Source of the DNA: a virus
DNA length: 61,496 nucleotides
Reading direction: 5' to 3' (one strand)
UHGV virus genome: UHGV-0350099
Under the pieces are notes generated by a model. It saw only the letters and a list, made by a program, of their open reading frames with translations. It searched no databases and was not told the DNA's origin. This document shows, piece after piece, positions 10,739 to 40,344 of the stretch; position 1 is the stretch's first letter; every line of letters begins with the position of its first letter. A program made the position numbers and the translations under genes.

Positions 10739-12079
10739 ATGACCGAACTTTGCCATACAGGACGCGGGCTGTCCGAAGAGTTTGATGAAGATTTCCAGAA
10801 CAGACTGACGGCATATTTTTGTCGTGATCACGAGTTTCTTACTCGTGCGGGAGATCTGGTTGTGCCTAGCCAATTTGCCAATGCGGCCAATGCCATATTG
10901 GTTAATATGGTTTCGGGCTATTACCGTATGTACAAGAGCGCGCCCTCTTCATCTGCGATTCTGGATATGCTTAAGCGTGCGAAACGCGATAAGACTATCC
11001 GTGAGGAACTATTCGCCGATGTTGTTGCTGCGTTTAAGCGCATCCTTGCAGAAAAATTGTCTGATACCTCGTACATGGTTGACCAGGTATCAACCTTCGC
11101 AAAAAGCGTAGCGTTTGATGATGCTCTGATTAAGGCTGCTGAACTGAAAGAGAAGGGCGACTTTCAGGGGGCGATGGCAATCATGGCCAAGGTTCAGCAG
11201 ATTGGATCGAACGAAGCGACCGGAATCTATGACTACTACACCTCCGCAAGTGAGCGATTGAAAGCGCGTGAATATGAGGCTTCAGAGGAGTATGTGCCAA
11301 ACAGCATTACAACTGGACTCCCTCTGCTCGATAGGTTGCTGTACCAAAAAGGCTGGGCGAAGCGTGAAATGGTGCTCTTCATGGGGTTCGCTAAATCCGG
11401 TAAATCGACCGCAATGGGTGAGTTTTCCATAAACGCAACGCTTGCTGGCTACAATGTTCTGTATCTCTCGCTGGAGGTTCACACCACCATTTTATCCGAC
11501 CGTTTTGATGCAAGATTGTCGGAGACAGAAATGTCCAAGCTGGTGGAACGGCGCGATGAGGTTCATCGTAAGTTGGCAGAGTTGGGAGCCACGAAGGGGA
11601 TTGGTAGTTTGTGGGTTGTTGAGCGTCCGTCAGGAAGTATGTCACCGGCAGATCTGGATCGTATGCTTAACAGCATGAAAGCCAATGGCATGGTGCCTGA
11701 CATGGTTGTTGTCGACTATGCAGATTTGATGCGTGCCAGTTATGACCTTCGTGATGATCGCGCCAACATACGTAGTATCTATACCGACTTACGTGCTCTT
11801 TATGACAAACACAACGTTGCTGGTATCACGGCATCGCAGACAAACCGTGAAGGTGGCGCGTCAGAAGTTGCCACAATGATGCACGCTGCCGACAACATCG
11901 AAAAAGTACGTATTGCTGACCTGGTAATAACGATCAACAAAACCGAAGAAGAAGAAGCGAAAGGAGAGGCTCGTCTCTACTTTGCTGGTTCACGTAACCA
12001 GCAGGGAGGGATCAGCATTCGCGTTAAACAAAACCTCGAACAAATGCGCTTCATTGAGCGAATCTTAGACGTTACCTAA
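10739..12079 (+). CDS. DnaB-family/RecA-fold replicative DNA helicase
   Basis: Walker A GFAKSGKST, Walker B VVVDYADLM; conserved start context AAAGGAAAGCACATG. Confidence 0.65.
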   Translation: MTELCHTGRGLSEEFDEDFQNRLTAYFCRDHEFLTRAGDLVVPSQFANAANAILVNMVSGYYRMYKSAPSSSAILDMLKRAKRDKTIREELFADVVAAFKRILAEKLSDTSYMVDQVSTFAKSVAFDDALIKAAELKEKGDFQGAMAIMAKVQQIGSNEATGIYDYYTSASERLKAREYEASEEYVPNSITTGLPLLDRLLYQKGWAKREMVLFMGFAKSGKSTAMGEFSINATLAGYNVLYLSLEVHTTILSDRFDARLSETEMSKLVERRDEVHRKLAELGATKGIGSLWVVERPSGSMSPADLDRMLNSMKANGMVPDMVVVDYADLMRASYDLRDDRANIRSIYTDLRALYDKHNVAGITASQTNREGGASEVATMMHAADNIEKVRIADLVITINKTEEEEAKGEARLYFAGSRNQQGGISIRVKQNLEQMRFIERILDVT

Positions 12080-12161
12080 AAAATAAGCGTGGAGAACACC
12101 TCCACGCTTGATTCATTGGTGAAACAACTTTTCTTTTGCCAAACCACAAAAGAAAAACACA

Positions 12162-13342
12162 TGAGCCTTTATGTTATATCAACATTTAGGTTGGTCACAA
12201 TATTGCCTGTTAAAAGTGGAATTATCGTGAGCGAGCTGAAAGAGCTAATTACCGAATTAGATTTTGAACAATGGTTGGACACTGAAGGTATCGTTTATCG
12301 ACGTGGAGGCGTGAGTGCTCGCGGTCGTGAAGTGAATATCAAGGAGTGTCCGGTATGCGGCAGCTCCAACTGGAAGGTATATTTCAATCTGACCAGTGGC
12401 GTCGGTAAATGCTTCGCTGGTGATCATCCCGAAGAGATTCAGTTCAATAAGCTGGTCTTCCTCAAGCACTACAGCGGCAAATCACGACGACAGTTCGAGG
12501 AATATGTGCAGAACGCCCTTCTTTCCCAGGGGTGGGCACCAAAGAAAGAAGAGATAGTGCTTGCAAGCACAGTCGAGTTAGAGGGACCACTTGCACTCCC
12601 TCGTCATTACGAACTTCCTATAGATGGCCGTCTTCCAGACTATCTGGTTGAACGAAACATATCGCCTGAAATGGCAAAGTATTTTGACCTACGATACTGC
12701 GTCGAAGGCAAGCACGCTTATGTAGATCCGTATACAGATCAGGTTAAAGGACAGATATTCGATATGCGAATACTGATACCGGTTTACGATCTGGATGGGG
12801 TAATGAAGACATTTCAGGGGCGAGACATTACCGGTACAGCTGAACGTCGCTACCTCTTTCCTATGCAGCTTCCAGCTTCAGGTAAGTTTCTCTACAACGG
12901 CCATAATGCGGTCGGCAAACAGACTGTAGTTGTCTGTGAGGGGGCGTTCGATGTTATGGGAGTTAAACGAGCTATTTTTGATGAAGAAACATTACGTGAT
13001 TACGTGGAACCGATAGGAACGTTCGGGATGCATCTATCTGGTAACACCACTCAGGATGCAGAAGATCAGTTGGGCGCGTTCCTGACGCTCAAGGCGCGTG
13101 GATTACGTAATGTGATCATGATGTGGGATAGTGAAAAGCAAGCTATACGCAACACTATGGCCGCAGCCAGGCGACTGACCAGTATTGGTCTTAATGTCAA
13201 AGTAGCATGTTTGGGCGAGGAAGGACTCGACCCAGGCGATGCAACGCCAGAACAAATTATCAAAGCCTATTATCGGGCAAAACCGTATACCAAACAGTTG
13301 GAGTTGCAAAGCAAGGTTTTGGGCATTAAGGCGCTATCGTAA
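12162..13342 (+). CDS. DNA primase (zinc finger + Toprim)
   Basis: CPVCGSSNW...KCFAGDH zinc-binding motif; Toprim-like VVCEGAFDVMG and MMWDSEK; start chosen at ATG 12162 after AAAAACAC. Confidence 0.7.
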
Positions 13343-21202: not shown

Positions 21203-23311
21203 ATGTCTAAAAAACGTTCCATCAAAGAGGTTCAGGACTTCCGTGACAGTGTAAAACGAGTAGTCGCTCTCCTTTCAGGTAAAAACATCCCTGTTGCAGA
21301 ACGAGGGGACGACGCTTATGTACGCTATAACGATGATGGAGAGCCAATTCTCGTAAACATCCCATCAATCCCGGATAACGCAACACCGGCATTGATGAAT
21401 GCTGTGCGCGGATTTCTCGATCATGAGGTTGCTCACATTTTGTTTACCGATATTCGTGTGTCCAACAAAATGAGAGAAAAAGGACGCGTTCCTTCCTGGT
21501 CGCTATGGAATGCCTTAGAAGACGTGTTCATCGAGCGAAAAATGGGTCAGGTCTTTAACGGAACAAGACGTAATCTGATGGCAACTCAGCGCCTTATAAT
21601 CGAAAAAGTCTTTAAACCAAAGGCTTCAGAGGCTATTGCTTATTGTGGCAAAGATCAGCGCGCGCTTTTTCTAAACTTCTTTCTCTGTCCGGTTGTAAGA
21701 GCCTGGGATGGCCAAGCACCGTTCGTAGATTTCATGGATGAATATTGGCCTGTCATTGAGAAACCAATTTCATTATTAAAAGAACATGGTATCGATGTGG
21801 CCGTGCGTAACATGTCTTGCACCGAGGATTGTGTAAAGGTGGCTGCGACCATAGCTAAGATCCTCAAAGACACTGAAAGTGAAAGCAAAGGTAAGGAGTC
21901 AGCTCCGGGAAAAACTTCCGATCCTTCAGACGCTGACCAGACGGATGCCTCTGGAGAAAACAATGAAGACAACGAAGATCATGAGACACCCTCATCGTTA
22001 GATAATCACAAATCTATTAAATCAGAGTCACATAGTAAGCACAAACATGATAATAACGACAGTGATGATTCAGATAATCCTGAATCATCAGAAACAATAT
22101 TCGATGATACAGAAAATGATAAAGCGGTATCAGATTCTGATGCTTCTGATAACGCGGCGTCAGAATCATTAACCGCTGACCACGAAAAAAGAAAAACGAC
22201 AGAAGACGGCTCTTCAGACATTCCAACTCCGTCAAAAATGAGTCTGGAAGAGGCTTTAGAGGAGTTGGATAGCATGGAAGATGAAGTCGGAGGCATGACA
22301 GAAGATGCGCTATCCGAAACGATTAAAAGCGAGTTAACAGAAAGCTCGAAAAGCGAATACAGGCCATACAATCGCTCATACGACTTCATCGGCTCGATTG
22401 ATCAGGCAGAAGCCCATATCAAACGGCTTATTAAAACATTCTCCGATATTGATTTAGGTGGATATCCAATCAGCCGTTATCGCATCGTTCCTGAAGGCAA
22501 CCAACTCTTCGACAAATATATTGAAAAGCACCTTTCGTCAGGTGTTTCGTCGACGCTGGCAAAAGACCTGGAACGTGCAATAGCAAGCAGAAACAGAGTT
22601 CAGTTTATACCTGGCCAGCGTCGGGGGCGCATTCATGGTTCAAGTATCTACAGATTAACAATGAATGATGATCGCGTGTTTCGTAAAAAAGAAGAATCTA
22701 AAGCCGTTAACGCCTGTGTTCAACAAGTGATTGATTTATCGGGTTCAATGAGTGGCGAAACGATAAAACTAGCTCTTGCAAGTGCATATACCATCGCCGA
22801 TGCACTTGATCGAATAAATGTTCCCAACATTATCACCGGCTTCACTACATTTGGCAGTCATATGGCAGCAGGAGAACTTAAGGCTATCAAATATGAGTTC
22901 TCTCGCTTTGAATCTTTAATGCTACCTATCATCAAAAATTGGAATGAAAAAGCAAATTCTCGCGAAGTTCGCTCACGTATGGGGTGCGTAGGCTACACAT
23001 TCCCACTTCTTAATAACGTGGATGGTGAAAGCATAGCCAGCCTTGCATCGTTATTTTCCGGTCGCTTGGAGGACAGGAAGATCATGCTTGTTCTGAGCGA
23101 TGGCGCGCCGTGGGCTGTTGGGAGAGGTTTTGACGCCCATTTGCGTTCGGTTACGAAGCAAATTGAAACGCAGACTGACATTGATTTGATGGCAATTGGC
23201 ATCATGACTGATGCACCGGAGAGATTTTACGCAAATCATGCCCTGGTAACTAGTGTTGATAGTCTTGGTTCATCTGTAGTTACTGAACTATCTCGTATCA
23301 TTTTGAAGTAA
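21203..23311 (+). CDS. vWA-domain protein, CobT-like, with long acidic low-complexity linker
   Basis: 702 aa; MIDAS-like DLSGSMSG motif near C-terminal domain; Asp/Ser/Glu-rich linker around 21900-22300. Confidence 0.65.
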   Translation: MSKKRSIKEVQDFRDSVKRVVALLSGKNIPVAERGDDAYVRYNDDGEPILVNIPSIPDNATPALMNAVRGFLDHEVAHILFTDIRVSNKMREKGRVPSWSLWNALEDVFIERKMGQVFNGTRRNLMATQRLIIEKVFKPKASEAIAYCGKDQRALFLNFFLCPVVRAWDGQAPFVDFMDEYWPVIEKPISLLKEHGIDVAVRNMSCTEDCVKVAATIAKILKDTESESKGKESAPGKTSDPSDADQTDASGENNEDNEDHETPSSLDNHKSIKSESHSKHKHDNNDSDDSDNPESSETIFDDTENDKAVSDSDASDNAASESLTADHEKRKTTEDGSSDIPTPSKMSLEEALEELDSMEDEVGGMTEDALSETIKSELTESSKSEYRPYNRSYDFIGSIDQAEAHIKRLIKTFSDIDLGGYPISRYRIVPEGNQLFDKYIEKHLSSGVSSTLAKDLERAIASRNRVQFIPGQRRGRIHGSSIYRLTMNDDRVFRKKEESKAVNACVQQVIDLSGSMSGETIKLALASAYTIADALDRINVPNIITGFTTFGSHMAAGELKAIKYEFSRFESLMLPIIKNWNEKANSREVRSRMGCVGYTFPLLNNVDGESIASLASLFSGRLEDRKIMLVLSDGAPWAVGRGFDAHLRSVTKQIETQTDIDLMAIGIMTDAPERFYANHALVTSVDSLGSSVVTELSRIILK

Positions 23312-23327
23312 TTAAAACAGCCTTAAT

Positions 23328-23349
23328 GATAAGTAACTACTTACCATAG
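23328..23349. promoter_or_regulatory. Palindromic intergenic motif GATAAGTAACTACTTACCATAG
   Basis: Member of dispersed TAAGTA/TACTTA motif family. Confidence 0.45.
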
Positions 23350-23406
23350 TTAATGGTATATTTATATAAGAACTTGAACGCTCATTAGAGAACAAAGGAA
23401 AAGCGC

Positions 23407-24642
23407 ATGACTACTACTGCACTGCAAAATGATAAAAATCCTTCTGATTACCTTGTTTGCAAGTGGTGCGGCAAATCATTTCACTATTTTAAGTCCCATG
23501 TAGCCAATGGTAATTGCGAGGGCATTCCTGAGTCAGTAAAAGATGCCGATCCTGACACCGTACTGAAAATGTACACAACGCAGTTTCCAGATGAACCAAC
23601 GCTATCGAAAAAGGCACTTGATGCAATTCAAGCTAAACGTGCCGAGCAAAAAAGCGAAATGGCGAAATCTTCTGGCTTGACCAGTAGCCCAGGCTACACA
23701 GGCACAGTTGAGTACAAGACAGATCTGGTCGCAGCTCACGAACTGCTAAACGTAACGGTGGAAGAACTCGGAACAAAACGTGGGACGCCGCTCATGGTTA
23801 GCGTCAACGTCAATACGCCGTATCCAGAGTTCGTTCCAGAAGTGAAGAAGGGCTACGTATATGGCGACTTCGAACTGATCAAAGATATTTTCATGATGCT
23901 TGAACTTGGCATACCTGGCTATTTGTGGGGTCATGCAGGAACAGGCAAATCGTCATTGCCTACACAGCTATGTGCTTTGCTCAATCGTCCGTTGATCCGT
24001 GCCCAACATACAGCATCAATGGAAGAGGCACATGTTACGGGGCAAATTCTGGCGCGTGATGGCTCTACGTATTTCGAGCCTGGCTTGCTTGCGCTCGCAA
24101 TGAAGCATGGCTGGGTTTACCTCGCGGATGAATACGACTTTGCGTTTCCACAAATTCTTGGCGTGTATCAGCCAGTGCTGGAAGGTGAGGCGTTGGTCAT
24201 CAAAGAGGCAACTCCAGAATGGCGTCGCATTACTCCGCATGAACGGTTTGCTTTCATTGGCACTGGCAACACAAACGGTTCTGGTGATGAAACCGGCTTG
24301 TACCAGGGTACAAACATCCAGAACGCCGCGAACTTTTCACGTTTTGGCATCGTTTCGAATGTGAAATACATGAGCAAAGAGGCAGAGATCAACATGTTGA
24401 TAAATGCCGGCATCGTGGATGAGTACGCTGAAAAGATGGTTAAGTTTGCCGGTATCGTTCGCGATGGATATGAAGAACACCTTATCAGCCAGCCAATTGG
24501 GCCTCGTGAGCTTTTGTTGTCGGCCAAGATTGGAATGATGCGAGGCGACTTTGTGGCAGGTATTGAGCGTTCTTTCATTAACAAACTCCCTTCAGCTTCT
24601 GCGCAAGCGGCTCGTGAAGTTGTTCAAAAAATATTTGGTTAA
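23407..24642 (+). CDS. AAA+ ATPase, MoxR/CobS-like
   Basis: Walker A GHAGTGKSSL, Walker B-like VYLADEYDF; adjacent to vWA partner. Confidence 0.7.
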   Translation: MTTTALQNDKNPSDYLVCKWCGKSFHYFKSHVANGNCEGIPESVKDADPDTVLKMYTTQFPDEPTLSKKALDAIQAKRAEQKSEMAKSSGLTSSPGYTGTVEYKTDLVAAHELLNVTVEELGTKRGTPLMVSVNVNTPYPEFVPEVKKGYVYGDFELIKDIFMMLELGIPGYLWGHAGTGKSSLPTQLCALLNRPLIRAQHTASMEEAHVTGQILARDGSTYFEPGLLALAMKHGWVYLADEYDFAFPQILGVYQPVLEGEALVIKEATPEWRRITPHERFAFIGTGNTNGSGDETGLYQGTNIQNAANFSRFGIVSNVKYMSKEAEINMLINAGIVDEYAEKMVKFAGIVRDGYEEHLISQPIGPRELLLSAKIGMMRGDFVAGIERSFINKLPSASAQAAREVVQKIFG

Positions 24643-24822
24643 TCGTGCGTAAAGGATGTTTCGGCTCTCTTATCGCTGCTTCTGAAACTGGCAAGGCTTG
24701 TCTGGGGTGTCCAGACAAGCCCGATTGTCACCAATCAGCAAAAGAAGTTGCGATTTCGATGTATGGGAAGTTCGTAGGCTTCCCCAATGACAAAATCAAA
24801 AAAACCAGAAAGGTAAAAACAC

Positions 24823-27800
24823 ATGAAGGCACTGATGGTTCGAACTGACTTCTCACTTGGGGAGTCGGCTCTAAAAGCAGAAAACGCGGTGAAGATTGCC
24901 AGAGAAGCTGGCTACACCGCTGTAATTTCAGCAGATAGCATGAATATTGCGAGCGTTATTCCACTACAACGTGCCGCTGGTGACGACATGGCGGTTATTT
25001 GTGGTGTGAAACTAAACATTGTTGATGATCCCACATACGAGCACCGGGCTAAACTTGCTAAAGAATCTATGAGATGTATGGAATCATTAGAGCGGGGACG
25101 TAACTACTCGTTTACCGCTCTAATTAAAAATGAGCAAGGATATCGCGACATCTGCGAACTAATGACGGTGGCCAACACACGAGAACAGTTCTACTTTGTA
25201 CCGCGTCTCTCGCTCGAACAGTTGGTTTCTACATATGCCAAAGGCAACATCATCCTGCTTACTTCCGACATCGGTAGCGTGTTCCAACGCAACGATTTTG
25301 CAAAAATCATAAGCACACTGATTACAGCGGGTGGAAAAGACAACTTCTATAGTGTGGTTTATCCGCACCCTACCCCATTCTACGACCAGATTAACGTCCG
25401 AGCGATGAAAGTAGCCAGCGCACTGAAAATAGAGCCAGTAGCGTTCTATCCCGCTTATTACGAATCGATCGACGATGCAGACATTAAAGACATTGCGCAC
25501 ATGGTTACGAACAACATAAAAATCGACCAGCCGCATCGTCTGCGTATCCCCCACCAGCGAGATAACGCCATCAATGGTCGTCGCCATCTCCTTGAGGCGC
25601 TTAAAGCCTTCTCCGTTCGCATGGATGTGCCGGTAACAGCTGCAATGGCCTCAACAACGCAGGACTCCATTATCGATGCCTGCACATGGCGCTGGCATGA
25701 ATTGCCACCAGCACTGCCCAAGATGGCAGACGACGAACCTGCAACGCTGATGAAACTGGCTGTTGCAGGGCTGCGTAAACGTCTTACCACAAAAGAGTTT
25801 GGATACACACCACCTGCTTCTGAGAACAGGGTTTATGTTGAGCGGCTAAAGTACGAAATGAACACGCTGACTCGCCTGGGATTTTGTGGTTACTTCCTGA
25901 TGGTACGCGATCTGATGAATCACAGCCGTGAAACTGGCATTCCTGTCGGGCCTGGTCGTGGTTCCTCTGCCGGTTCTCTGGTGGCGTGGTGCATAGGCAT
26001 AACCAACGTCGACCCAATCCGTCACGGTCTTCTGTTTGAGCGTTTCATCAACCCTGAGCGTCTCGACTTGCCGGATGCGGACTTGGACTTCAGCCAGGCA
26101 CGTCGCCATGAGGTGATCGAGTATCTGAATGAACGCTACGGCGAAGATTACGTTGCAGGCATTCCGAACTTCACCTATCTGGGCGCGGCATCTGCACTAC
26201 GTGACACCGCTCGTATTTATGGTGTGGAGTCCGCAGATATGGCGGTATCAAAAGAACTGAAGAACGTCGAGGATGATAGCCTTCCATTGGAAGAGCTGCG
26301 CGAACAACTGGCAAGTCTCGACAAATACGCAACAAAATATCCTGATGCATTCAATGCAGCCTGCAAGTTACAAAGCCTTATGCGTGGCTTTGGTAGACAT
26401 GCGGCAGGGATGATTGTAGCAGGTGTTCCTCTGACAGAACGTACACCGGTTGAGCGCCGTGGTGACGCGCGTTGTATCGCATTTGACAAGCGTTACTGCG
26501 AGGCTATGGGCCTAATTAAGCTGGACGTGCTTGGCCTGGCAACTCTCGATTTGCTCGATAGTGCAAAACGCTACATAAAAGAGAACACAGGTGAAGATAT
26601 CAATCTTGATGCCATTTCTCTTGAAGATCGCAAGGTGCTGGATGGTTTTGCTGCAGGGTATACACAGGGCGTATTCCAGCTGGAGTCCGGCCCCATGCGC
26701 AAGCTGCTTAAAGATCTAGGCGGTGGCATTGAGCCAATGAGCTTTAAAACCGTTGTCGCCACGACCGCACTCTTCCGACCTGGCCCGATCCAATCCGGCA
26801 TGTTGGACGACTATGTTTCTGTCGCCAAAGGCTTTATGACGCCGGAATCATTACACCCCGTTCTTGATGAACTTACCGCGGAAACAAATGGCGTGATTCT
26901 CTATCAGGAACAGACGATGAACGCGACTCGATTGCTTGCCGGCTTCACAATGGCTGAAGCTGACGGTGTGCGTTCCGCAATCGGTAAGAAGAACATGGAA
27001 AAAATGAAGAGCATGGGCGAGAAGTTCATCGTTCAGGCTCAAGCTGGCTGGATAGACGTTGAGCTGGAAGATGGCACTACACAGCGCATTCACCGTGCGG
27101 AACATTTTAAATGCGAAGACGGAACTCTGAAAACTGTCGAAGAGGCACTTGAGCACGGCGCAAAACTACCTATAAACGCAGTACGCGTTACAGCGTCACA
27201 TCCAGGGCTATCAGAGATGAAAGCGAAGGAGATCTGGACCGCATTCGAAAAAAATGGTGCCTACCAGTTCAATAAATCACACTCCGTTGCTTATTCTTTA
27301 ATCAGTTATCAGTCTATGTGGCTAAAGACGCACTACCCTGCTGAGTTCTTCGCAGCTGCGCTCACCATTCTGGGCGAGGATAAGCATCAGGGGCTGGTGA
27401 AGGATGCGCTGACCTATGGCATTCGCGTATTGCCACCAGACGTTAATGTGTCATCTAACCGAATTGAGATCCGCACACTCGAAGACGGCAGTCAGGCACT
27501 GTATGCGCCATTCTCTGCTGTGAAAGGCTGTTCTGAAAATGGTTGTCAGGCAATTATGCGTGCGCGTGAGAAAGTTGGTGGCAAATTCGAGTCAGTGGCA
27601 CAATTCGATGAAGCGGTCGAGAAGCGTGCATGTAACAGTCGTGTACGCGAGTCGCTTCATAAAGTAGGGGCTTTTGCGTCAATTGAGCCAGGCAGTCTGC
27701 CAGCAACTGATCCTGAACGACTGCGCGACCAGGCTGAGCTGATGGGCAATCTCATCATTGACGCTGTTAAAGCATCACGTCCGTTCGAAATGAATCCTAA

Positions 27801-28341
27801 GCGTTCTGCCGAAATCAACGTACTCATGACACGTATGGCGGCTGAAATGGGCTTGGGTGAGGAGTTGATACGCCCGACTATTGGTATTAAACCCAAAATC
27901 ATGATCATTCTGGACAATGCGAACGGCAATGACGCTCGTACCGGCTACTTCATGGAGAACGGATACGACGACTTTAAGGCAAAACTACTGACAGTTGGAG
28001 ATCTGCGCATGGGCGATCTTTATGTCACGGGTGTTTGTAAGAAGGTTAAGGACAAAGAGAAAGACTATACCAAAGACGAGATAGGCCAGTTCACAGACTT
28101 TATGCGGGAAGAAATTAATCTTGTACGACCAACCTACATTTTGACGTGTGGTAGTCGTTCAACCGCACTATTTAACAATAAGAGTAAACCATCAGATCTG
28201 ATTGGTCGTAAGGAGTACTTCCCAGAGCTTGATGCAACCGTCTTCTACGGATTTAACCCGAATATCCTGTACTTCCGACCGGAAGAAGGAGAGCGACTGG
28301 AGGCCATTCTGGCTGATATCGCGGAGACAATAAATAAGTAA
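24823..28341 (+). CDS. dnaE: DNA polymerase III alpha-subunit-like (DnaE-family, C-family polymerase)
   Basis: 1172 aa; N-terminal PHP-like region; core GFCGYFLMVRDLM...GPGRGSSAGSLVAWCIGITNVDP...PDADLDF. Confidence 0.9.
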   Translation: MKALMVRTDFSLGESALKAENAVKIAREAGYTAVISADSMNIASVIPLQRAAGDDMAVICGVKLNIVDDPTYEHRAKLAKESMRCMESLERGRNYSFTALIKNEQGYRDICELMTVANTREQFYFVPRLSLEQLVSTYAKGNIILLTSDIGSVFQRNDFAKIISTLITAGGKDNFYSVVYPHPTPFYDQINVRAMKVASALKIEPVAFYPAYYESIDDADIKDIAHMVTNNIKIDQPHRLRIPHQRDNAINGRRHLLEALKAFSVRMDVPVTAAMASTTQDSIIDACTWRWHELPPALPKMADDEPATLMKLAVAGLRKRLTTKEFGYTPPASENRVYVERLKYEMNTLTRLGFCGYFLMVRDLMNHSRETGIPVGPGRGSSAGSLVAWCIGITNVDPIRHGLLFERFINPERLDLPDADLDFSQARRHEVIEYLNERYGEDYVAGIPNFTYLGAASALRDTARIYGVESADMAVSKELKNVEDDSLPLEELREQLASLDKYATKYPDAFNAACKLQSLMRGFGRHAAGMIVAGVPLTERTPVERRGDARCIAFDKRYCEAMGLIKLDVLGLATLDLLDSAKRYIKENTGEDINLDAISLEDRKVLDGFAAGYTQGVFQLESGPMRKLLKDLGGGIEPMSFKTVVATTALFRPGPIQSGMLDDYVSVAKGFMTPESLHPVLDELTAETNGVILYQEQTMNATRLLAGFTMAEADGVRSAIGKKNMEKMKSMGEKFIVQAQAGWIDVELEDGTTQRIHRAEHFKCEDGTLKTVEEALEHGAKLPINAVRVTASHPGLSEMKAKEIWTAFEKNGAYQFNKSHSVAYSLISYQSMWLKTHYPAEFFAAALTILGEDKHQGLVKDALTYGIRVLPPDVNVSSNRIEIRTLEDGSQALYAPFSAVKGCSENGCQAIMRAREKVGGKFESVAQFDEAVEKRACNSRVRESLHKVGAFASIEPGSLPATDPERLRDQAELMGNLIIDAVKASRPFEMNPKRSAEINVLMTRMAAEMGLGEELIRPTIGIKPKIMIILDNANGNDARTGYFMENGYDDFKAKLLTVGDLRMGDLYVTGVCKKVKDKEKDYTKDEIGQFTDFMREEINLVRPTYILTCGSRSTALFNNKSKPSDLIGRKEYFPELDATVFYGFNPNILYFRPEEGERLEAILADIAETINK

Positions 28342-28347
28342 TAAAGA

Positions 28348-28372
28348 AAACCCGCCTGTTGGCGGGTTTATA
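28348..28372. terminator. Bidirectional rho-independent terminator between dnaE (+) and cspA (-)
   Basis: AAAACCCGCC-TGTT-GGCGGGTTTAT, A-tract and T-tract on either side. Confidence 0.65.
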
Positions 28373-28644: not shown

Positions 28645-28860
28645 TCAGCTTAGAGCAACGACATTTGCTGCTGCTGGGCCTTTAGCACCATTCTCGATAG
28701 AGAATTCGACCTGCTGGCCTTCTTCCAAAGTGCGGAAATTATTACTCTGAATTGCCGAAAAATGTACAAAAACATCTTTACTGCCATCAGCAGGAGAAAT
28801 AAAGCCAAAGCCTTTATCAGAGTTAAACCATTTTACTAAACCAGTCATTTTATTAGACAT
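28645..28860 (-). CDS. cspA: Cold-shock protein, CspA family
   Basis: [38 protein letters not shown]... with RNP motifs KGFGFI and VFVHF; start trimmed to MSNK. Confidence 0.9.
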
Positions 28861-29075
28861 AGATATTACCTTCTTAATTTTGTGAGCCACATAGTGCGGC
28901 GAGAATTTGATCTGTATAGATTGGGACTTACTTAGGCACTTAAGGAGGAGACTCACGAAGAAGGGAAATCAGAAGATAACACTGAACTGAGACTGCTTTA
29001 CTAAAACTGCTTACATAAGGTCTGTCTTGCAAACCAACGATGCTATTAACGCATACCCCTTCTTTTCATGCAACC
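28861..29075 (-). promoter_or_regulatory. cspA-type promoter and long 5' UTR
   Basis: On minus strand reads TTGCAT -35-like, TTAAT -10-like and a cold-box-like TGCAAGACAGACC; about 180-nt leader as in enterobacterial cspA (recalled from memory). Confidence 0.5.
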
Positions 29076-30841: not shown

Positions 30842-31870
30842 ATGTCTAAGACATTACTTGATTTGCTTAACAAAACTCGTGAAGACATTGCCGCCAAACG
30901 TGGCAACAACGTTGATCTGACTCGCTTAAAAGACGGCGTCAACTATATCCGCATCTTCCCGAATAAAGACGACCCAAACGGTAAGTTCTTCCAGACTTTC
31001 GGTATGCACTACGTTAAGTATCAGAACGAGGAAGGTAAAGAAGCAACCAACGCTTATATTTGTGAGCAACATACTCACGGTCGCGCTTGTCAGCTATGCG
31101 AAATGGTTATGGAAGGTCGCGCTCGTCACAAGGGTAACAAAGCAATGGAAGAACGCATCGGTCAAATGCGTGCCACTCCTCGCTACCTGGTCAACGGCAT
31201 TCTTTCTGCTCGTGAGGATTTCGCAGATGCTGAGAAATGCCAGTTAATCGAGCTGCCGTCTACTGTATTCGATGATATCTGCAAAGCAATCACCGAAGAC
31301 ATCGCTGATGATATCGGCAATCCACTGAGCAAAGAGGAAGGCTACGCATTCCTGATTAAACGTACTGGCTCTGGTCGCGATACCAAATATGACGTCTCGC
31401 CTAAGCGTAAAGTCTACAAAGGCGATATCGAAGATAAATTCTGGAACACCCAGCATGATCTGATCGCATACGCAAATCAGGCTGATGAAACTCGTCTTCT
31501 GTCGACAGTTCGCACTATGGGTCGTCTGATTGGCATCGCTGCACCAACTGCCGCAGCATCTGCACCAGCAATTTCCTCAACCGCGAAAACATCGGCTGCG
31601 GCACTACCTGGATTTGGCTCTGTCACTGGTCATACGGAGGGTGCGACTGCTGTAGCAACCGCTCACACCCCAGCTTCTGAACCAACCAGTCTGGTTGATG
31701 AAGAAATCCTCCGTGCCGTTGAAACTGAATTTAAACCAGAAGCAAGTTCCGCTGCCGTTGCCGTATCAGTCAAAGAGTCTGAAGCAGTCGCAGCGACATC
31801 TGTAGCAGCCGCATCTGCGACGGAAGATGAAGGTCTGGATGACCTACTGAGAGAGCTGGACTCTCTGTAA
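30842..31870 (+). CDS. Single-stranded DNA-binding protein (gp32-like)
   Basis: Zn-binding-like CEQHTHGRACQLCE; Ala/Ser-rich linker and acidic C-terminal tail DEGLDDLLRELDSL. Confidence 0.55.
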   Translation: MSKTLLDLLNKTREDIAAKRGNNVDLTRLKDGVNYIRIFPNKDDPNGKFFQTFGMHYVKYQNEEGKEATNAYICEQHTHGRACQLCEMVMEGRARHKGNKAMEERIGQMRATPRYLVNGILSAREDFADAEKCQLIELPSTVFDDICKAITEDIADDIGNPLSKEEGYAFLIKRTGSGRDTKYDVSPKRKVYKGDIEDKFWNTQHDLIAYANQADETRLLSTVRTMGRLIGIAAPTAAASAPAISSTAKTSAAALPGFGSVTGHTEGATAVATAHTPASEPTSLVDEEILRAVETEFKPEASSAAVAVSVKESEAVAATSVAAASATEDEGLDDLLRELDSL

Positions 31871-31886
31871 TCCCATTACGTGACCA

Positions 31887-31915
31887 GTAAGGCGTCTACG
31901 GACGCCTTACTTTTT
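31887..31915 (+). terminator. Rho-independent terminator (AGGCGTCC/GGACGCCT family)
   Basis: GTAAGGCGTC-TACG-GACGCCTTAC followed by TTTTT. Confidence 0.65.
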
Positions 31916-31930
31916 GGAAGGAATGTACCG

Positions 31931-32875
31931 GTGAATTATCTCTTCGTAGATGGCAATAGCCTGGGTTATTACCACCAACAATCTGACAAATTGCACAACG
32001 GCGAAATGGAAGTACAGGCTGCTTTCGGCTTTGTTAAGAACGTCCGTCGTTATGCCTCCATCCTCCATGCCCGACCTATGATTCTTTGGGATGGATTTAG
32101 TGACAAGCGTCGCGACTTTTACCCGGACTACAAAGCAAATCGCGACGACGATCCTGATATGAAAAAGATGAAGGAAGGCTTTGCTGTCCAGAAGCCATAC
32201 ATCCTCAAAATGATGACCGCGCTTGGTGTTAACCAAATCATTGCAAAAGATGCAGAAGCGGATGATCTGGCCGGGCTGCTGGTATCCCGCATGGCACCGC
32301 AGCCAACCGTTGAACACATCTATCTGTTAACAGGCGATAGCGACTGGCTTCAGTTAGTTCGTGAAAACGTAAGCTGGGTAAGCCTGCGTGAAGACGCCAA
32401 AAACAAGCAGGTTAATTTTGAGCAATTTGCGGAGCTGACAGGATTCGCCACGCCTCGCGCATTTTTGGAAGCAAAAGCATTACAAGGCGATAACTCGGAC
32501 AACATTAGCGGTGTTGGAGGCATTGGTGCTGGCGGTGCGAAAGAGCTGCTGCATGAATGGGGAAGTGTCGCAACGATGGTACGCGGCATCAACGACGGCT
32601 CAATCGTGGTTAATAAAGGGCGTCATAAGACCGCCTTCAACAAACTAGCGAAGAATGCCTTCAACGAGAAAACAGGCTGTCGAATGCTCGAAGCGTTCAA
32701 GAGAAACATCACGCTAATGAACCTGATTGAGACGAAGTTTCCGCCTACCGAAATCGAAACAATCAAAGGCAATCGTGACGTGAAAGCATTCGAGCAACTG
32801 TGCTACGAGCTGAATTTCCGTTCGTTCCTTGAAGACCTTGAAGTGTTTGTTCTTCCATTCGAAAGGTATTGCTAA
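31931..32875 (+). CDS. 5'-3' exonuclease / flap endonuclease (Pol I 5' nuclease-like, phage RNase H type)
   Basis: LFVDGNSLGYY, AEADDLAG, LLTGDSDWLQLV and H3TH GDNSDNISGVGGIG motifs; start GTG 31931 after RBS GGAAGGA, since the longer ORF start lies inside the terminator. Confidence 0.8.
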   Translation: MNYLFVDGNSLGYYHQQSDKLHNGEMEVQAAFGFVKNVRRYASILHARPMILWDGFSDKRRDFYPDYKANRDDDPDMKKMKEGFAVQKPYILKMMTALGVNQIIAKDAEADDLAGLLVSRMAPQPTVEHIYLLTGDSDWLQLVRENVSWVSLREDAKNKQVNFEQFAELTGFATPRAFLEAKALQGDNSDNISGVGGIGAGGAKELLHEWGSVATMVRGINDGSIVVNKGRHKTAFNKLAKNAFNEKTGCRMLEAFKRNITLMNLIETKFPPTEIETIKGNRDVKAFEQLCYELNFRSFLEDLEVFVLPFERYC

Positions 32876-33143: not shown

Positions 33144-35483
33144 ATGGCAAAAGGAAAATCCGCACTGGCACTTGCTCTGAAAAAGAAAATCGGTAGCAAC
33201 GACGAAATTCAGAAAGTAACTCATTGGATTGATACAGGCTTTCCACCGTTAAACAAAGCTATTTCTGGTCGTTACGATGGCGGCTTCCCATGTGGTCGTA
33301 TCGTCGAAGTATTCGGTCCACCAAGCGCGGGGAAATGTGTTACCGCAGACACCATGCTGCTGACGGAGCGTGGAATGGTAACAGTGAAAGAGTTGTTTGA
33401 GATTGAAGGGTACAAAGCGACATGCACTACTCGCGATGTAGAGCATAACGTTGGACTCATCAATGAAAATGGCGTGATAGAGAAGACCTCACACCTGACA
33501 TGGAACAACCGTCGCAAATTCAAGCGTATTAAGCTGGCATCAGGCGGTTATATCGAGGCTACGTTCCGTCACCCAATCCGTGTGGTTGACGACTTAGGTA
33601 ATGTCGTCTGGCGACATGCTGAAAAAATCAGTGTAGGCGACACGATTCCTTCAATGGTTGGCACACATCAATTCGGCGATCAGCACCTGGATGCCAATAT
33701 CGCAAAACTGATGGGCTATTTAATTGCTGACGGATACGTGGCCTCTGAAAATTCAGTGAATTTTTCTAACACAGATCCTTTCATCAAGGATGAGTACTAC
33801 CGCCTCATTTCGCTGGTATCAGACAAGATGCCAGTTGCGAGAAAACATAACGGCTCGGAAGACCATGTGCTGTTTAGCAAAGAGGTGCGTTCGCTGCTTT
33901 TTAAAGAATATGGTCTGGAGTATGAGAAAGCTGCTGGCAAGCAGGTTCCGTTGAGTGTGCGTCGCGCCAATAGCGAGGCTCAAATTGCATTCCTTCGCGG
34001 CTACTTTGAGCTGGAATGCCACGTCAATGATGGTCGCTGCATTGAGGTTGTGAGCGCGAGTGGGCTGCTGCTACAGCAAATTCGCCTCATGCTCCTGAAT
34101 CTGGGGATTACGTCAACTATCTCTGAAAAACACGTCGCGGGTTATGAAAATACATATTACCGGCTGTCATTCAGTGGCTCTAATTACGACCTTTTTCTGT
34201 CAACGATTGGTTTCGAATCTCCGGCACGTTTATCAGTGGCAACCAAACGGGACATTGGTTTTGACCGCACTTACTCAGGCTATGTTCCGCACATCAGCGG
34301 CTTAGTGAAATCACTCTACGAGTCGCTCACCAAGACCACCCGTGAAGACTACGCTCTGGTAGACCACGTTATTGGCCGCGGCGATCGTGTCGGAATAGAC
34401 AAACTGCGAGAAATCTATGTCTCCTTCATTGGCAGAAAGAATCGTTTTAACGAGCATCTGTTTGCACAACTGGCAGCGGTAATTGGCTCTAACTTGTTCT
34501 ACGACGAAGTCGTGGCTATTGAGGAAGGTGAAGCACCAACGTTCGACGTAGCGATGCCGGAAACACACTCTTTCTGGTCTAACGGGATTATCAGCCACAA
34601 CACATTCCTTGCAACAGCAGCGATGATCTCCGCTCAAAAACAAGATGGTCTGGCGGTATTCCTCGATCATGAAAACAGTTTTGACGTTGGCCTGGCTGTA
34701 GCCAATGGCCTGAACGCAGATGAGGATGACGGTCAGTGGGTATACAAGCAGCCAGATACCTTCGAAGACTCTGTAGAGTTGATCGGCACAATACTTAAAT
34801 TGGTTCGTGATGAAGAGCTTATCCCCGAATCAGCACCTATCTGTATCGTGGCTGACTCTCTTGCGTCTATGGTTCCGAACTCCAAAGCCGAGAAGTTCGA
34901 AAAGATGGCTGAAGGCACAGCCAAAGACAAAGATCAGCTAAACATGAACGACAATACGGCACTGGCTCGTGCGACGAGTGCGAACTTCCCTACTCTGGCT
35001 TTGTGGGCACGCAAATACAACGCCTGCATCATCTTCTTGAATCAGGTTCGCACAAAAATCGGTGTAATGTTTGGCGACCCTACTACGTCGCCAGGTGGAG
35101 ATTCACCGAAGTTTTACGCTTCTGTGCGTATCCGTCTTGGTGCATCGGTGATGAAGGATGGTAAAGAGAAGATCGGCCAGGACGTAGGCGCAGAATGCAT
35201 CAAAAACAAAGTTGCACCACCGTATGGCAAATGCACCTGGAAATTCTACTTCGATCCTACTCGTGGCCTCGACGTTATCGAATCGCTCGTCGAGTACATG
35301 CTGGAAGAAGGATACCTGCCAAAGAACGCCAGCGGGCGAGTTGAAATTGGTGACAAGAAATACACCAAATCGCAGATCGTCGAGATGTATCGGGAGAAGC
35401 CACTGGCTGAAATCATTGCGGCTTTGCAGGCAATCGACGACCGAAGAGCAAAAGACAACCCCACCGAGTCAGTAGAAGAGTAA
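33144..35483 (+). CDS. recA: RecA-like recombinase interrupted by an intein
   Basis: Exteins: GRIVEVFGPPSAGK|...|TFLATAAM, AVFLDHENSFD, CIVADSLASMVP, IFLNQVRTKIGVMFGDPTTSPGGDSPKFYASVRIRLG match RecA core motifs. Confidence 0.85.
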   Translation: MAKGKSALALALKKKIGSNDEIQKVTHWIDTGFPPLNKAISGRYDGGFPCGRIVEVFGPPSAGKCVTADTMLLTERGMVTVKELFEIEGYKATCTTRDVEHNVGLINENGVIEKTSHLTWNNRRKFKRIKLASGGYIEATFRHPIRVVDDLGNVVWRHAEKISVGDTIPSMVGTHQFGDQHLDANIAKLMGYLIADGYVASENSVNFSNTDPFIKDEYYRLISLVSDKMPVARKHNGSEDHVLFSKEVRSLLFKEYGLEYEKAAGKQVPLSVRRANSEAQIAFLRGYFELECHVNDGRCIEVVSASGLLLQQIRLMLLNLGITSTISEKHVAGYENTYYRLSFSGSNYDLFLSTIGFESPARLSVATKRDIGFDRTYSGYVPHISGLVKSLYESLTKTTREDYALVDHVIGRGDRVGIDKLREIYVSFIGRKNRFNEHLFAQLAAVIGSNLFYDEVVAIEEGEAPTFDVAMPETHSFWSNGIISHNTFLATAAMISAQKQDGLAVFLDHENSFDVGLAVANGLNADEDDGQWVYKQPDTFEDSVELIGTILKLVRDEELIPESAPICIVADSLASMVPNSKAEKFEKMAEGTAKDKDQLNMNDNTALARATSANFPTLALWARKYNACIIFLNQVRTKIGVMFGDPTTSPGGDSPKFYASVRIRLGASVMKDGKEKIGQDVGAECIKNKVAPPYGKCTWKFYFDPTRGLDVIESLVEYMLEEGYLPKNASGRVEIGDKKYTKSQIVEMYREKPLAEIIAALQAIDDRRAKDNPTESVEE
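33336..34601 (+). mobile_element. Intein (422 aa) with LAGLIDADG homing endonuclease, inserted in the RecA P-loop
   Basis: Begins with Cys right after GPPSAGK, ends HN followed by Thr; LAGLIDADG-like LMGYLIADGYV and FLRGYFELECHV. Confidence 0.8.
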
Positions 35484-38219: not shown

Positions 38220-38224
38220 TAGCA

Positions 38225-38708
38225 CCAACCACTGCGGTGAGTAGTCTGCTCACCGCATTCGTATCCAGCTCATTATCCACTGTAGTCAGTAACAAAACCT
38301 TCCTACATATCTGCTAACCACTGTAGCGAGTAGACAGCCTTTCATTCGCATCAAACAACCACTATGGTGAGTATTGGAGTGAGATGTCCAGCGGGTATCC
38401 ACTATGGTGAGTAAGCCTTTGCTGTTTTCAGTGGATATCCACTCGCCACAGTGGATACGCTCAAAGATGAGGGCGACAACAACCACTATAGACAGTAAAT
38501 TTTCCAAGATACCCAGTGACCACTAACCTCGCAGCCCTTGTTTCATCAGTGTTAGTGATCACTAACATTTAATTCAGTATTTGCATTCTACTGCCTACAG
38601 TGGTTATCAACAGATAACGATACTCACTATAGTGGATAGCGAATTACAGATATAAGTAAGGCTCACTACAGTGGATAGTGAGCCTTACTACTAACTACAG
38701 TGGTTGGG
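38225..38708. repeat. Iteron-like repeat array downstream of repA (incA-like copy-control candidate)
   Basis: About 11 copies of CCACTRTRG(N)GAGTA / CTACAGTGGWTA at roughly 40-bp spacing, both orientations; core CACTATAGTG is palindromic. Confidence 0.6.
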
Positions 38709-39764
38709 CTATTTGCGAGTCTTTGCCTTGCGCAACTCTTCGAGAAGCGCCAGTTCTTCTTTACTCAACATGACCATTTTGCCTTCTTTTTCGTCAGGCA
38801 CAACGTCGATAATGTCATCTTGATTCTCATCTGGGAGGCTATATTCCGTCTCATCATTATCGATTTTTGTTGATATTTGTGCCTGGCGTAACTTTGGCCG
38901 CCTATAGTGGATGACGAAGTAGACCGAGTTTCCGCGCTTAACTTCCGTGTAATCGAGATATCCTATCTCTCGCAGCTGTTCCATAGCCTTTCTTACCGTC
39001 GCATTCTGAGTAATAGTGCGACTTGTCAGATTAAGTCTGGCGCGTAAACGGGCTAGTGATATTGGTGCCGGATCAGGCGGCAAACTTTCAATAAAAGTAT
39101 AAAGCGCCTGAGCGGATTCTTTTCTTGAGAGTTCGTTTATAGCCCGGAGTTGCAGAAGAACCTTTTTGTCGAACTGGTAGAGTTCGAAAATCTTGGGATC
39201 TGCTTTCAGTTCGACCGTATCGTGCTTGACACTATATTTTGCCGTTTGCACAAGATGCGTTACGTAAAACTCATCAGAGCCTTTGCTACGGAACGAGATG
39301 GTATTTGTGGCAATACGGCTTAGCGAACTGTCCAGGCGTTTGCGTAACTTCGCTGATGACCTGGCGGTCGGAATGCCACACAGCCTTACAAACTCAACGA
39401 ACGGCAACGTGACAGTATCGCCAACGACCTTGTGTTTGGCAAACGCGTGGATTATTCCCACCCACGTTTTAAAGTCGTTATCCATATCAAGCCGAAGGCC
39501 AGAGATCCTTATGTCTTCGTACCCTTCGGCTTTTGCCAGAGACAGCTGTTTGAGTTCAGCAGAGGCATCCATAGAGACCATTTGCCCCTTTCTTCCTCTG
39601 GATGTCGATTTCAGCGTCGGAACGAAGAGGCCCAGACGCATCAAAGCAACAGGCTGAACAGTGTTATTAGTGTTAGGAACCAACGTAACAACTTCGCCTG
39701 TCTTTTTATCTGTTTCTGAAAATGCTTCAACGATCGCTATGTTTTTATTGCCGTTTTCGCTCAT
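38709..39764 (-). CDS. repA: Iteron-type plasmid replication initiator RepA (P1 RepA / RepFIB-like)
   Basis: 351 aa flanked by iteron arrays; [47 protein letters not shown] segments recalled as matching P1-type RepA (no search run). Confidence 0.8.
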
Positions 39765-39804
39765 TCCAAATGTCTCTTGTTATTCGACGGCTTTGGTGGC
39801 CTTT

Positions 39805-39930
39805 GCTGATTACAGTGGATAGTAGCACTCATCACAGCGGTTATCCTACCGTCTATAGTGGTTTTTCTCCTCTCTATAGTGGTTGCTTTGCTCCCTATAG
39901 TGGATTATTCGCTCTCTATAGTGGATATCG
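39805..39930. repeat. Origin iterons (6 direct repeats, about 21-bp spacing)
   Basis: YTCTATAGTGGWT cores at 39811, 39833, 39853, 39875, 39896, 39917. Confidence 0.7.
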
Positions 39931-39964
39931 ATCATGTCTGAAGGCAGATGGCACAACGGTTTGA

Positions 39965-40050
39965 GGTGGGCGGGGATCTTATTGGGTCTTTATGGGTCTC
40001 TTTGGTTCTCTTTGTGATCTGAATTACTGGATCGGGCCTGTGGATAAAAA
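39965..40050. promoter_or_regulatory. Degenerate GATC-heptamer region plus DnaA-box-like TGTGGATAA
   Basis: GGGATCTTATT/GGGTCTTTAT/GGGTCTCTTT/GTGATCT repeats; TGTGGATAA at 40039-40047. Confidence 0.45.
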
Positions 40051-40204
40051 TCAGAGGATTTCAAGAACAGGTAACTCTACTCTTCTGTGGATATTTAAGG
40101 ACATAAGAATCATGACTAAGAGTAGAGTTTAAAATATATCTATGTATATCAGTATGTTAATGAAGAATTAAGTCATTAAGTTATCCATAAAAGACAATGT
40201 GCTC

Positions 40205-40310
40205 TACTCTCTACAGTGGATATATACAGCTCTCCAGAGTGGTTGTTTTACTCTTCATAGCGGTTATTCAGCTCTCTACAGAGGTTTCTTTGCTCTCCAT
40301 AGTGGATGGC
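40205..40310. repeat. Second iteron set (5 repeats), part of duplicated origin module
   Basis: CTCTACAGTGG, CTCCAGAGTGG, CTTCATAGCGG, CTCTACAGAGG, CTCCATAGTGG at 21-22-bp spacing. Confidence 0.6.
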
Positions 40311-40344
40311 AACACCCTTTCAGACCAGTAACCGCAACGGCTAG

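Follow-up and report, generated by a model that had tools for sequence, protein, structure and literature searches.

A DnaE-type DNA polymerase ending in a degenerate uracil-DNA glycosylase fold, with a candidate trans-acting proofreader, in an SSU5-like phage-plasmid

The virus genome UHGV-0350099 is a stretch of 61,496 nucleotides (nt), called the window below, and we analyzed the dnaE-like gene that it carries at positions 24823-28341 on the plus strand, a single ATG-to-stop open reading frame (ORF) of 1172 amino acids (aa). We found, with very high confidence, that this ORF encodes a DnaE-type C-family DNA polymerase with an intact polymerase active site, and that a degenerate uracil-DNA glycosylase (UDG) fold of family 4 takes the place of the OB fold and the tau-binding C-terminal domain (CTD). 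Judged by its sequence, the window is an SSU5-like phage-plasmid (SSU5 supercommunity; Pfeifer et al. 2021, PMC7969092), and the polymerase is probably the catalytic subunit of the element's own replicase.

Pfam assigned four domains to the polymerase: PHP (PF02811) at aa 6-176 (E 6e-13), DNA_pol3_alpha (PF07733) at aa 309-571 (E 1e-73), DNA_pol3_finger (PF17657) at aa 574-740 (E 1e-43), and HHH_6 (PF14579) at aa 866-955 (E 4e-16). The score against the NCBIfam superfamily TIGR00594 was 624.9 bits, above the cut-off of 434.35, and the nearest solved structures by sequence are the Pol III alpha subunits of Taq, M. tuberculosis, and E. coli (E 1e-120 to 1e-108). The AlphaFold model of the full-length polymerase, made with 52 sequences, has a predicted local distance difference test score (pLDDT) of 91.2 and a predicted template modeling score (pTM) of 0.85; Foldseek matched it to Taq 2hpi (E 2.5e-60) and E. 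coli 5fkv (E 3.3e-53), while PolC was far weaker (E 1e-33). In addition, the PHP domain has no inserted exonuclease, and none exists anywhere in the polymerase, which is a distinction between DnaE and PolC. From these matches, we assign the ORF to the DnaE type. The original prediction of a DnaE-like polymerase with a PHP-like N terminus in this ORF is thus borne out by Pfam, TIGR00594, PDB, and Foldseek matches that agree with each other, and both the PHP domain and the Pol III alpha core are matched in Pfam.

The palm, thumb, and fingers core occupies aa 301-739 (25723-27039), and it contains the three catalytic aspartates, D418 (codon 26074-26076), D420 (26080-26082), and D568 (26524-26526). 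They correspond to D401, D403, and D555 of E. coli and lie in the motifs PDaDlDF and KLDvLGL. Inactivating substitutions at these palm residues would have argued against a working polymerase, and we found all three intact in the window and invariant in 57 full-length family members. The end of the fingers and the (HhH)2 domain follow at aa 792-955 (27196-27687). Here the FNKSH motif begins at aa 816 and corresponds to residues 756-760 of E. coli, so that H820 is the counterpart of H760, which we take to be the steric-gate residue; H820 is invariant in both the 16-sequence and the 52-sequence alignments.

The NCBIfam scores, a rough proxy for placement among DnaE1, DnaE2, and DnaE3, left the polymerase under the cut-off of every DnaE, DnaE2, and PolC equivalog model, with NF004226 as the best of them (672.6 versus 1002). 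An alternative is that the protein is an error-prone or repair accessory enzyme, similar to DnaE2 or DnaE3, and not the replicase of the element. The shortfall in the DnaE equivalog score is in line with this idea, as are the disrupted PHP metal site and the missing OB fold and CTD, which are typical of DnaE3 and DnaE2, and the fact that, of the C-family polymerases found on plasmids, about two thirds are DnaE2 (Timinskas et al. 2014, PMC3919608). However, the DnaE2 model NF004225 scored much lower and was not reached either (402 bits versus a cut-off of 939), and the conserved Q-x-x-L motif described below is unlike the P-rich motifs of DnaE2. The gene also sits in a module of helicase, primase, single-stranded-DNA-binding protein (SSB), and ligase genes that is conserved into distant phages, and the syntenic record of Escherichia phage Cyrano has no other annotated replicative polymerase and no annotated imuA/imuB-like gene. 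We regard an accessory role as very improbable.

The most unusual part of the polymerase is its C terminus. A family hidden Markov model aligned to E. coli alpha up to residue 897, and nothing past aa 955 of the window protein aligned; Pfam gave no match to an OB fold in the polymerase, and there is no tau-binding CTD. A UDG fold is found there instead, at aa ~1011-1172 (27853-28338). Searched against PDB, a profile of 35 C-terminal domains matched 4zbx (E 1e-21), TM0511 (1vk2; E 1e-20), and Tth UDGA (1ui0; E 2e-17), and 34 of the 35 members had a Pfam UDG match. The AlphaFold model of aa 956-1172 has a pLDDT of 93.6, and Foldseek aligned it to 4zbx with an E value of 1e-11 and template modeling (TM) scores of 0.72 and 0.80. 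Thus, the protein is not the full-length DnaE that had been proposed: a degenerate family-4 UDG fold stands in for the OB fold and tau-binding CTD, and at the other end almost all of the nine PHP ligand positions are substituted.

To judge the state of the UDG-like domain, we compared what defines family-4 UDGs and UdgX: a Glu in motif A, GE(A/G)PG, an Asn in TNAV, and the HPS(S/A)(L/V)(L/V)R of motif B (PMC10359453). A word-indexed search for homologs of the domain gave 6 fragments, and an exhaustive search of representatives gave 140 clusters at 50% identity; the counts below refer to 106 cluster representatives. Motif A reads LDNAN in the window, with D1031 at the Glu position, and Asp stands there in 99 of the 106. 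The uracil-reading Asn is absent from all 106, being replaced by G, S, A, or T (TGVC in the window), and the His of motif B remains in only one representative (the window has NPN, in NPNILYF). The stacking Phe is Met in the window and mostly M, L, G, or A among the representatives. Family-4 UDGs bind a 4Fe-4S cluster by four cysteines. At these ligand positions there is no Cys in the window or the rest of the SSU5 clade, although distant members keep a CxxC and one further Cys. According to these losses of motif A, the Asn, the motif B His, and the Fe-S cysteines, we conclude that the C-terminal domain would not act as a uracil glycosylase.

The distant domains also have a conserved His in an 'HP.P' segment, and they have lost the fourth Fe-S Cys (VKC to VKA). 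Their three Cys and one His may bind a metal as a 3Cys-1His site. Every residue of this set is missing from the SSU5 clade.

If the domain is not a glycosylase, its role has to be sought elsewhere, and we prefer protein docking or a structural function. For the UDG-PolA fusions, an extra DNA-binding processivity module has been proposed (PMC3201878; PMC10201439), and the acidity of the domain studied here argues against the same idea: the isoelectric point (pI) is 5.05 in the window, with a net charge of -4, the family median is pI 6.1, and 17 of 105 members lie above pI 8. As a caveat, the best-conserved residues among the 106 representatives, D1031, Y1067, T1069, K1073, and P1146, line the former pocket, and an altered ligand-binding function is possible. 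A rival reading is that the domain still acts on DNA, as a sensor of uracil or modified bases or as an editing glycosylase coupled to synthesis. Besides the conserved pocket and the cysteines and His retained in distant members, the well-kept fold (TM 0.72-0.80) and the element's own ThyX, DHFR, and MazG would suit such a role, and editing or sensing has been proposed for some UDG-PolA fusions (PMC10201439). But the Asn that reads uracil is gone from all 106 representatives, the motif B His is kept in one, and the stacking Phe is mostly replaced, and in the clade of the window the Fe-S cysteines are missing, while the domain is acidic; we consider an action on DNA very improbable, and a docking or structural role is the reading that we carry forward.

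Between the (HhH)2 domain and the UDG fold, the best-conserved linear motif is R-x-K-D-Q-x-E-L-(M/L)-P-G-L, which in the window is RLRDQAELMGNL (aa 966-977, 27718-27753). Among the 106 representatives, R966 is conserved in 102, Q970 in 99, L973 in 82, and P975 in 80, and position 974 is M, L, or I in 101. The clamp-binding motif of C-family polymerases, QL[S/D]LF, follows (HhH)2, and its positions 1, 4, and 5 weigh most (PMC3919608). In E. coli alpha, QADMF lies 34 residues past the GAF of (HhH)2, and in the window QAELM (aa 970-974) lies 21 residues past it; like QADMF, RLRDQAELMGNL is the first conserved element after (HhH)2. It seems likely from its conservation and place that the polymerase uses the host beta clamp through this candidate motif. 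Against this, only positions 1 and 4 of QAELM agree with QL[S/D]LF, position 5 being hydrophobic but not Phe, and the motif is modeled in a confident helix (aa 964-973, pLDDT ~90) and not as a free peptide, so the region may be purely structural.

No clamp, clamp loader, or theta subunit is annotated in the nearly identical phage Cyrano, and Pfam scans of the unannotated ORFs of the window found no clamp or clamp loader. One AAA match at 52697-53341 was considered as a clamp loader and set aside because it is kinase-like. Therefore, the Pol III-like core of the original prediction holds only as a loose analogy.

The PHP domain (aa 1 to ~300, 24823-25722) bears directly on how this polymerase could proofread. 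The canonical ligand pattern H, H, D, H, E, H, C, D, H is kept in the distant family members P0244, P0251, and P0260. At the same positions the window has M5, R7, E14, S39, K, S, D149, P, and Y, where residue numbers are given for positions at which the alignment could be read with confidence, and the ligand loss is common to nearly the whole family. Because the metal ligands are substituted, it can be excluded, as far as sequence tells, that the PHP domain would proofread by itself. Since the degeneration extends across the family, some external proofreader is expected.

The candidate for such a proofreader is a DnaQ-like DEDDh 3'-5' exonuclease of 185 aa, encoded at 53832-54389 on the plus strand, 25.5 kb downstream of the polymerase gene. 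It matches Pfam RNase_T (E 6e-22) and phrog_192, "DNA polymerase exonuclease subunit," and among PDB entries it matches E. coli epsilon best (E 8e-11), with residues 8-169 aligned to epsilon 11-176. The catalytic residues D9, E11, D99, H155, and D160 correspond to epsilon D12, E14, D103, H162, and D167 and are invariant in five distant orthologs. The orthologs from Rhizobium, Stenotrophomonas, and Pseudomonas phages, at 40-45% identity, are all 185-189 aa long, and orthologs share a short tail, G-[FLY]-[FYV]-x-x-P, in which P181 is invariant. The separate exonuclease that had been predicted about 25 kb from the polymerase is therefore present, with its ORF, its RNase_T match, and all five catalytic residues.

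Whether it proofreads for this polymerase is a different matter. A UDG-type dnaE tail occurs in 32 of 50,697 phage records, namely 31 genomes and one fragment, and the top 31 exonuclease matches in the same records (at least 39% identity) fall in exactly the 31 genomes with UDG-tailed DnaE; the next matches are at 35% identity or less with weak E values. This strict co-occurrence suits a proofreading role in trans, but it is suggestive rather than decisive, because the carrier phages share a core genome. The competing explanation is that the exonuclease serves recombination, nucleotide salvage, or degradation of host DNA or RNA, and that the polymerase recruits host epsilon or works without a proofreader. 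Several features favor it and weigh against our reading: the exonuclease ends at about epsilon residue 190 and has neither the C-terminal segment that binds alpha nor the clamp motif QTSMAF; it falls below all NCBIfam epsilon cut-offs (71 versus 196); its gene lies 25 kb off, among those for NrdAB, MazG, ThyX, PNK, and dihydrofolate reductase (DHFR); and no DnaE-DnaQ fusion occurs among the unusually long family members, whose extra length is due to inteins. On the other side stand the one-to-one match in 31 of 31 genomes, the PHP degeneration across the family, the fact that the nearest solved relative is epsilon itself, and the conserved tail with its invariant P181, which could be a docking peptide. 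We hold this alternative to be unlikely. Thus, the DnaQ-like exonuclease of the original prediction stands, while co-occurrence is the one link found to a possible role as proofreader.

For the ORF upstream of dnaQ, conservation in distant relatives is not convincing (19-24% identity). In the same nucleotide-metabolism block, the window carries a DHFR gene (52221-52697, plus strand), identified through the Cyrano annotation; the DHFRs dfrA50 and dfrA51 of SSU5-like phage-plasmids have been reported to confer trimethoprim resistance (PMC12217456).

The surroundings of the polymerase gene point to a replication module. On the plus strand of the window lie a DnaB-like helicase (10739-12079; Pfam DnaB_C) and a DnaG-type primase (12089-13342; Pfam DNAG_N and Toprim_2), both also annotated in Cyrano, followed by a 702-aa CobT-like VWA protein (21203-23311; Pfam CobT and CobT_C) and a 411-aa CobS-like AAA_5 ATPase of the MoxR type (23407-24642; Pfam AAA_5). 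Downstream of dnaE, the segment 30293-32875 encodes, according to the Cyrano annotation and synteny, a UvsY-like mediator, then a gp32-like SSB (30842-31870; phrog_1192) and a 5'-3' exonuclease (31880-32875; phrog_107), again all on the plus strand. In ~45 distant environmental viral loci with 35-39% DnaE identity, on contigs mostly of ~100-120 kb, the gene order is helicase-primase-ligase ... cobT-cobS-dnaE-uvsY-gp32-5'3'exo-recA-sbcD-sbcC-nrdA. Wherever a related locus reaches far enough, down to 35% DnaE identity, the pair cobT-cobS immediately precedes dnaE, and we found no literature linking cobT/cobS with phage Pol III. In IMG/VR, a search with full-length alignment gave at least 588 related stretches.

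A 67-aa ORF between cobS and dnaE overlaps the dnaE start (block 21203-24848, plus strand). Just downstream of dnaE and convergent with it is a CspA-type cold-shock ORF (28645-28956, minus strand; Pfam CSD, E 4e-33), and a GC-rich hairpin (28348-28369) lies between the two genes. Promoter and terminator scans around the dnaE-like gene gave results no better than shuffled sequence.

The window also contains the plasmid replicon that had been predicted (38224-40312, minus strand). Its Rep_3 initiator RepA (38709-39764, minus strand; Pfam Rep3_N and Rep3_C) has iteron arrays on both sides, at 38224-38705, 39802-39931, and 40203-40312, which consist of direct repeats in both orientations with a 21-nt spacing and the core CTATAGTGGAT. 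The replicon is of the typical iteron-controlled theta type, and the arrays possibly act in incompatibility and copy control. A RepA homolog was found only in SSU5-like loci (enterobacterial and Xenorhabdus), between recA and sbcD. This distribution supports the view that the polymerase module would be ancestral phage equipment and that the iteron replicon was added in the plasmid-prophage lineage, because RepA is confined to the enterobacterial clade while the dnaE module spans a much wider phage group. It is a reasonable inference from these gene contents that the element has two replication modes, as had been proposed.

Putting these observations together, we consider the following mechanism, taken whole, to be probable. 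The gene product would be the catalytic subunit of the phage-plasmid's own replicase, most likely driving genome replication in the lytic cycle. Its partners would be the element's DnaB-like helicase, primase, gp32-like SSB, 5'-3' exonuclease, and ligase, because they belong to the same conserved module. Processivity would come from the host beta clamp through the Q-x-E-L-M/L motif after (HhH)2, and the polymerase would not be plugged into the host holoenzyme, since it has no tau-binding domain. The co-conserved 185-aa DnaQ-like exonuclease would proofread in trans, docking in a manner unlike E. coli epsilon, and the acidic UDG-like domain would be a non-catalytic structural or protein-interaction module. 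The RepA/iteron replicon, gained by the enterobacterial clade only, would keep the prophage as a low-copy plasmid using host machinery. With RepA for the plasmid state and dnaE for the lytic cycle, the two systems would therefore serve different stages of the life cycle. It has to be set against this proposal that we found no biochemical or genetic data on the polymerase in the searchable literature.

A broader idea is more speculative, and we put it forward as a tentative and rather doubtful one. A large and coherent group of siphophages and phage-plasmids of ~105-120 kb, including SSU5-like elements, Pseudomonas Nickievirus, Rhizobium RHEph10-like and Stenotrophomonas ANB28-like phages, and hundreds of environmental contigs, might build a C-family replisome without tau or clamp loader in an undescribed way. 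The dead acidic UDG fold would then be a docking hub for the tail-less DnaQ-like protein and/or the helicase, and CobS/CobT would be an assembly or loading factor for the polymerase and would have no part in cobalamin synthesis.

Much of this system has been recorded before. The dnaE-like gene is 97% identical in nucleotides to CYRAN_49 of Cyrano, annotated in that syntenic record as "DNA polymerase III alpha subunit," and 85% identical to its counterpart in Salmonella phage SSU5. The best plasmid match in PLSDB is an E. coli plasmid with 99.3% identity; altogether 781 PLSDB plasmids, from Klebsiella, Escherichia, Enterobacter, Yersinia, and Salmonella, carry the gene, and nearly all of them are non-mobilizable. 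The Cyrano annotation also lists ParA, toxin-antitoxin pairs, RepA, integrase, DnaB-like helicase, primase, ligase, UvsY, gp32-like SSB, exonuclease, RecA, SbcCD, RuvC, NrdAB, ThyX, DHFR, and "Exonuclease, PolIII subunit epsilon," together with genes for holin, endolysin, and tail. Timinskas et al. (2014, PMC3919608) described an archaeal-type UDG (PF03167) replacing the OB fold and CTD in an extra polymerase of some Y. pestis and S. enterica strains, and the carriers of that variant, Yersinia pMT1 and Salmonella pHCM2, are relatives of the element in the window. GenBank records of phages and plasmids thus already annotate the polymerase gene, and its unusual domain make-up was pointed out in 2014; what may surprise a specialist is how scant the experimental work has been. 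What we add to the 2014 report is the status of the catalytic residues, how far the family extends among phages, the alleles that are split, and the exonuclease that co-occurs. The original prediction noted that many phages use A- or B-family polymerases; C-family polymerases are not rare in phages either, as 1366 of the 50,697 phage records carry one, mainly those of Pseudomonas, Mycobacterium, Streptomyces, and Gordonia phages; a 2011 tally gave 28 of 808 (PMC3201878).

The fingers of the window polymerase contain an insertion of 52 residues (aa 740-791, 27040-27195) that appears as a gap in the alignment with Taq, where query residue 739 (Taq 788) adjoins query residue 792 (Taq 789). It occurs only in the SSU5-like subclade (the window and P0094-P0102). 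The insertion is predicted to form a small beta-rich mini-domain, modeled with strands at 743-748, 753-757, 761-763, 769-771, and 786-793 and a helix at 772-778 (pLDDT 81-91). Pfam gave no match to it at E values up to 10. Its site coincides with that of a homing endonuclease gene in relatives, and we considered whether it is an intein/Hint remnant or half of a split intein. This is unsupported by the Pfam result; moreover, no extra ~100 aa are seen in the N fragment of the split alleles, extein-like sequence begins only ~10 residues into the C fragment, and the true inteins of the family occupy other sites.

In many relatives, dnaE is split at about aa 787 into ORFs of 787 aa and 389 aa, ~25 codons upstream of the FNKSH site, with a free-standing 233-aa HNH_3/NUMOD4 endonuclease gene between the halves. 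Examples are Klebsiella phages vB_KpnS_p4727 and GArcari-2022, cluster P0105 (1105 member sequences), and loci L004 (602-4854) and L005 (1822-6074). In three of four distant lineages that we examined (L094, L095, and L097), the N and C fragments again flank an ORF, 177-240 aa long, and one of the three ORFs matches NUMOD4 and HNH_3; in the fourth (P0141), the contig ends within the upstream ORF and the arrangement could not be read. The copy in the window is unsplit. The window and Cyrano genes are ~100% identical except for gene nt 1711-2520 (aa 571-840; window 26533-27342), where identity drops to 47% around the split site, and the Cyrano patch matches the split Klebsiella allele minus the endonuclease gene. 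This pattern looks like co-conversion around a homing site, and the window has the other, endonuclease-free allele, common to SSU5. True inteins occur elsewhere in dnaE of the distant members P0166, P0244, P0228, and P0260, in the fingers, the palm, and the classic FN(K/R)|SH site. The UDG-tailed polymerase family is thus a frequent target of selfish elements, and the recurrent split at one site indicates that the enzyme tolerates a two-polypeptide make-up, which is of some interest for protein engineering.

In the window, an intein with a LAGLIDADG endonuclease domain lies within RecA (33144-35483, plus strand; 779 aa; Pfam RecA, Intein_splicing, and LAGLIDADG_3), and the RecA of related elements is ~341 aa long and intein-free. 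Three further sequences (P0103, P0107, and P0124) combine DnaE N-terminal domains with a RecA Pfam match and are possibly fusions of dnaE and recA produced by a deletion.

Phage-plasmids of the SSU5 type occur widely in Klebsiella, Escherichia, Enterobacter, Yersinia, and Salmonella, and resistance genes are found on some of them. If our reading is right, these elements provide nearly all of a replisome themselves and would need the host mainly for the plasmid state.

Compared with DnaE1 of E. coli and Taq, with ~28% identity, the window polymerase has the same order of PHP, palm-thumb-fingers, and (HhH)2, the same Asp triad and steric-gate His, and a Q-x-x-L-type motif after (HhH)2. It differs in having a UDG fold in place of the OB fold and tau-binding CTD and in its 52-aa fingers insertion, and its PHP ligands are more degenerate than those of E. 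coli alpha. The 'DnaEX' of Yersinia pestis pMT1 and Salmonella pHCM2 (PMC3919608) belongs to the same protein family, and nothing essential differs. In the UDG-PolA fusions of N4-like, SPO1, and T5-like phages, a family-4 UDG fold is likewise joined to a phage replicative polymerase; the N4-like enzymes have not conserved the catalytic residues, and a role in processivity has been suggested (PMC10201439; PMC3201878), and phrog_17 (PolA) weakly matches the UDG-like region of the window. However, the polymerase there is A-family and not C-family, and the UDG is N-terminal there and C-terminal in the window; with opposite ends and different polymerase families, the fusions are presumably independent.

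The exonuclease resembles E. coli epsilon in its DEDDh fold and all five catalytic residues, but it has 185 aa instead of 243 and lacks the Q-linker, the alpha-binding segment, and QTSMAF. Phage P1 relies on host Pol III, whereas the lytic machinery of the window has a complete C-family polymerase. Like the phage-plasmids P1, N15, and the SSU5 supercommunity (PMC7969092), the element places a Rep_3/iteron replicon of the IncFIB type and ParA beside a complete phage replication module. Finally, the split dnaE genes of relatives recall the split-intein dnaE of cyanobacteria, with a break near the classic DnaE intein site, and the T4-related genes split by homing endonuclease genes; unlike the cyanobacterial case, it is a free-standing HNH_3/NUMOD4 ORF that splits the gene, and there are no intein halves.

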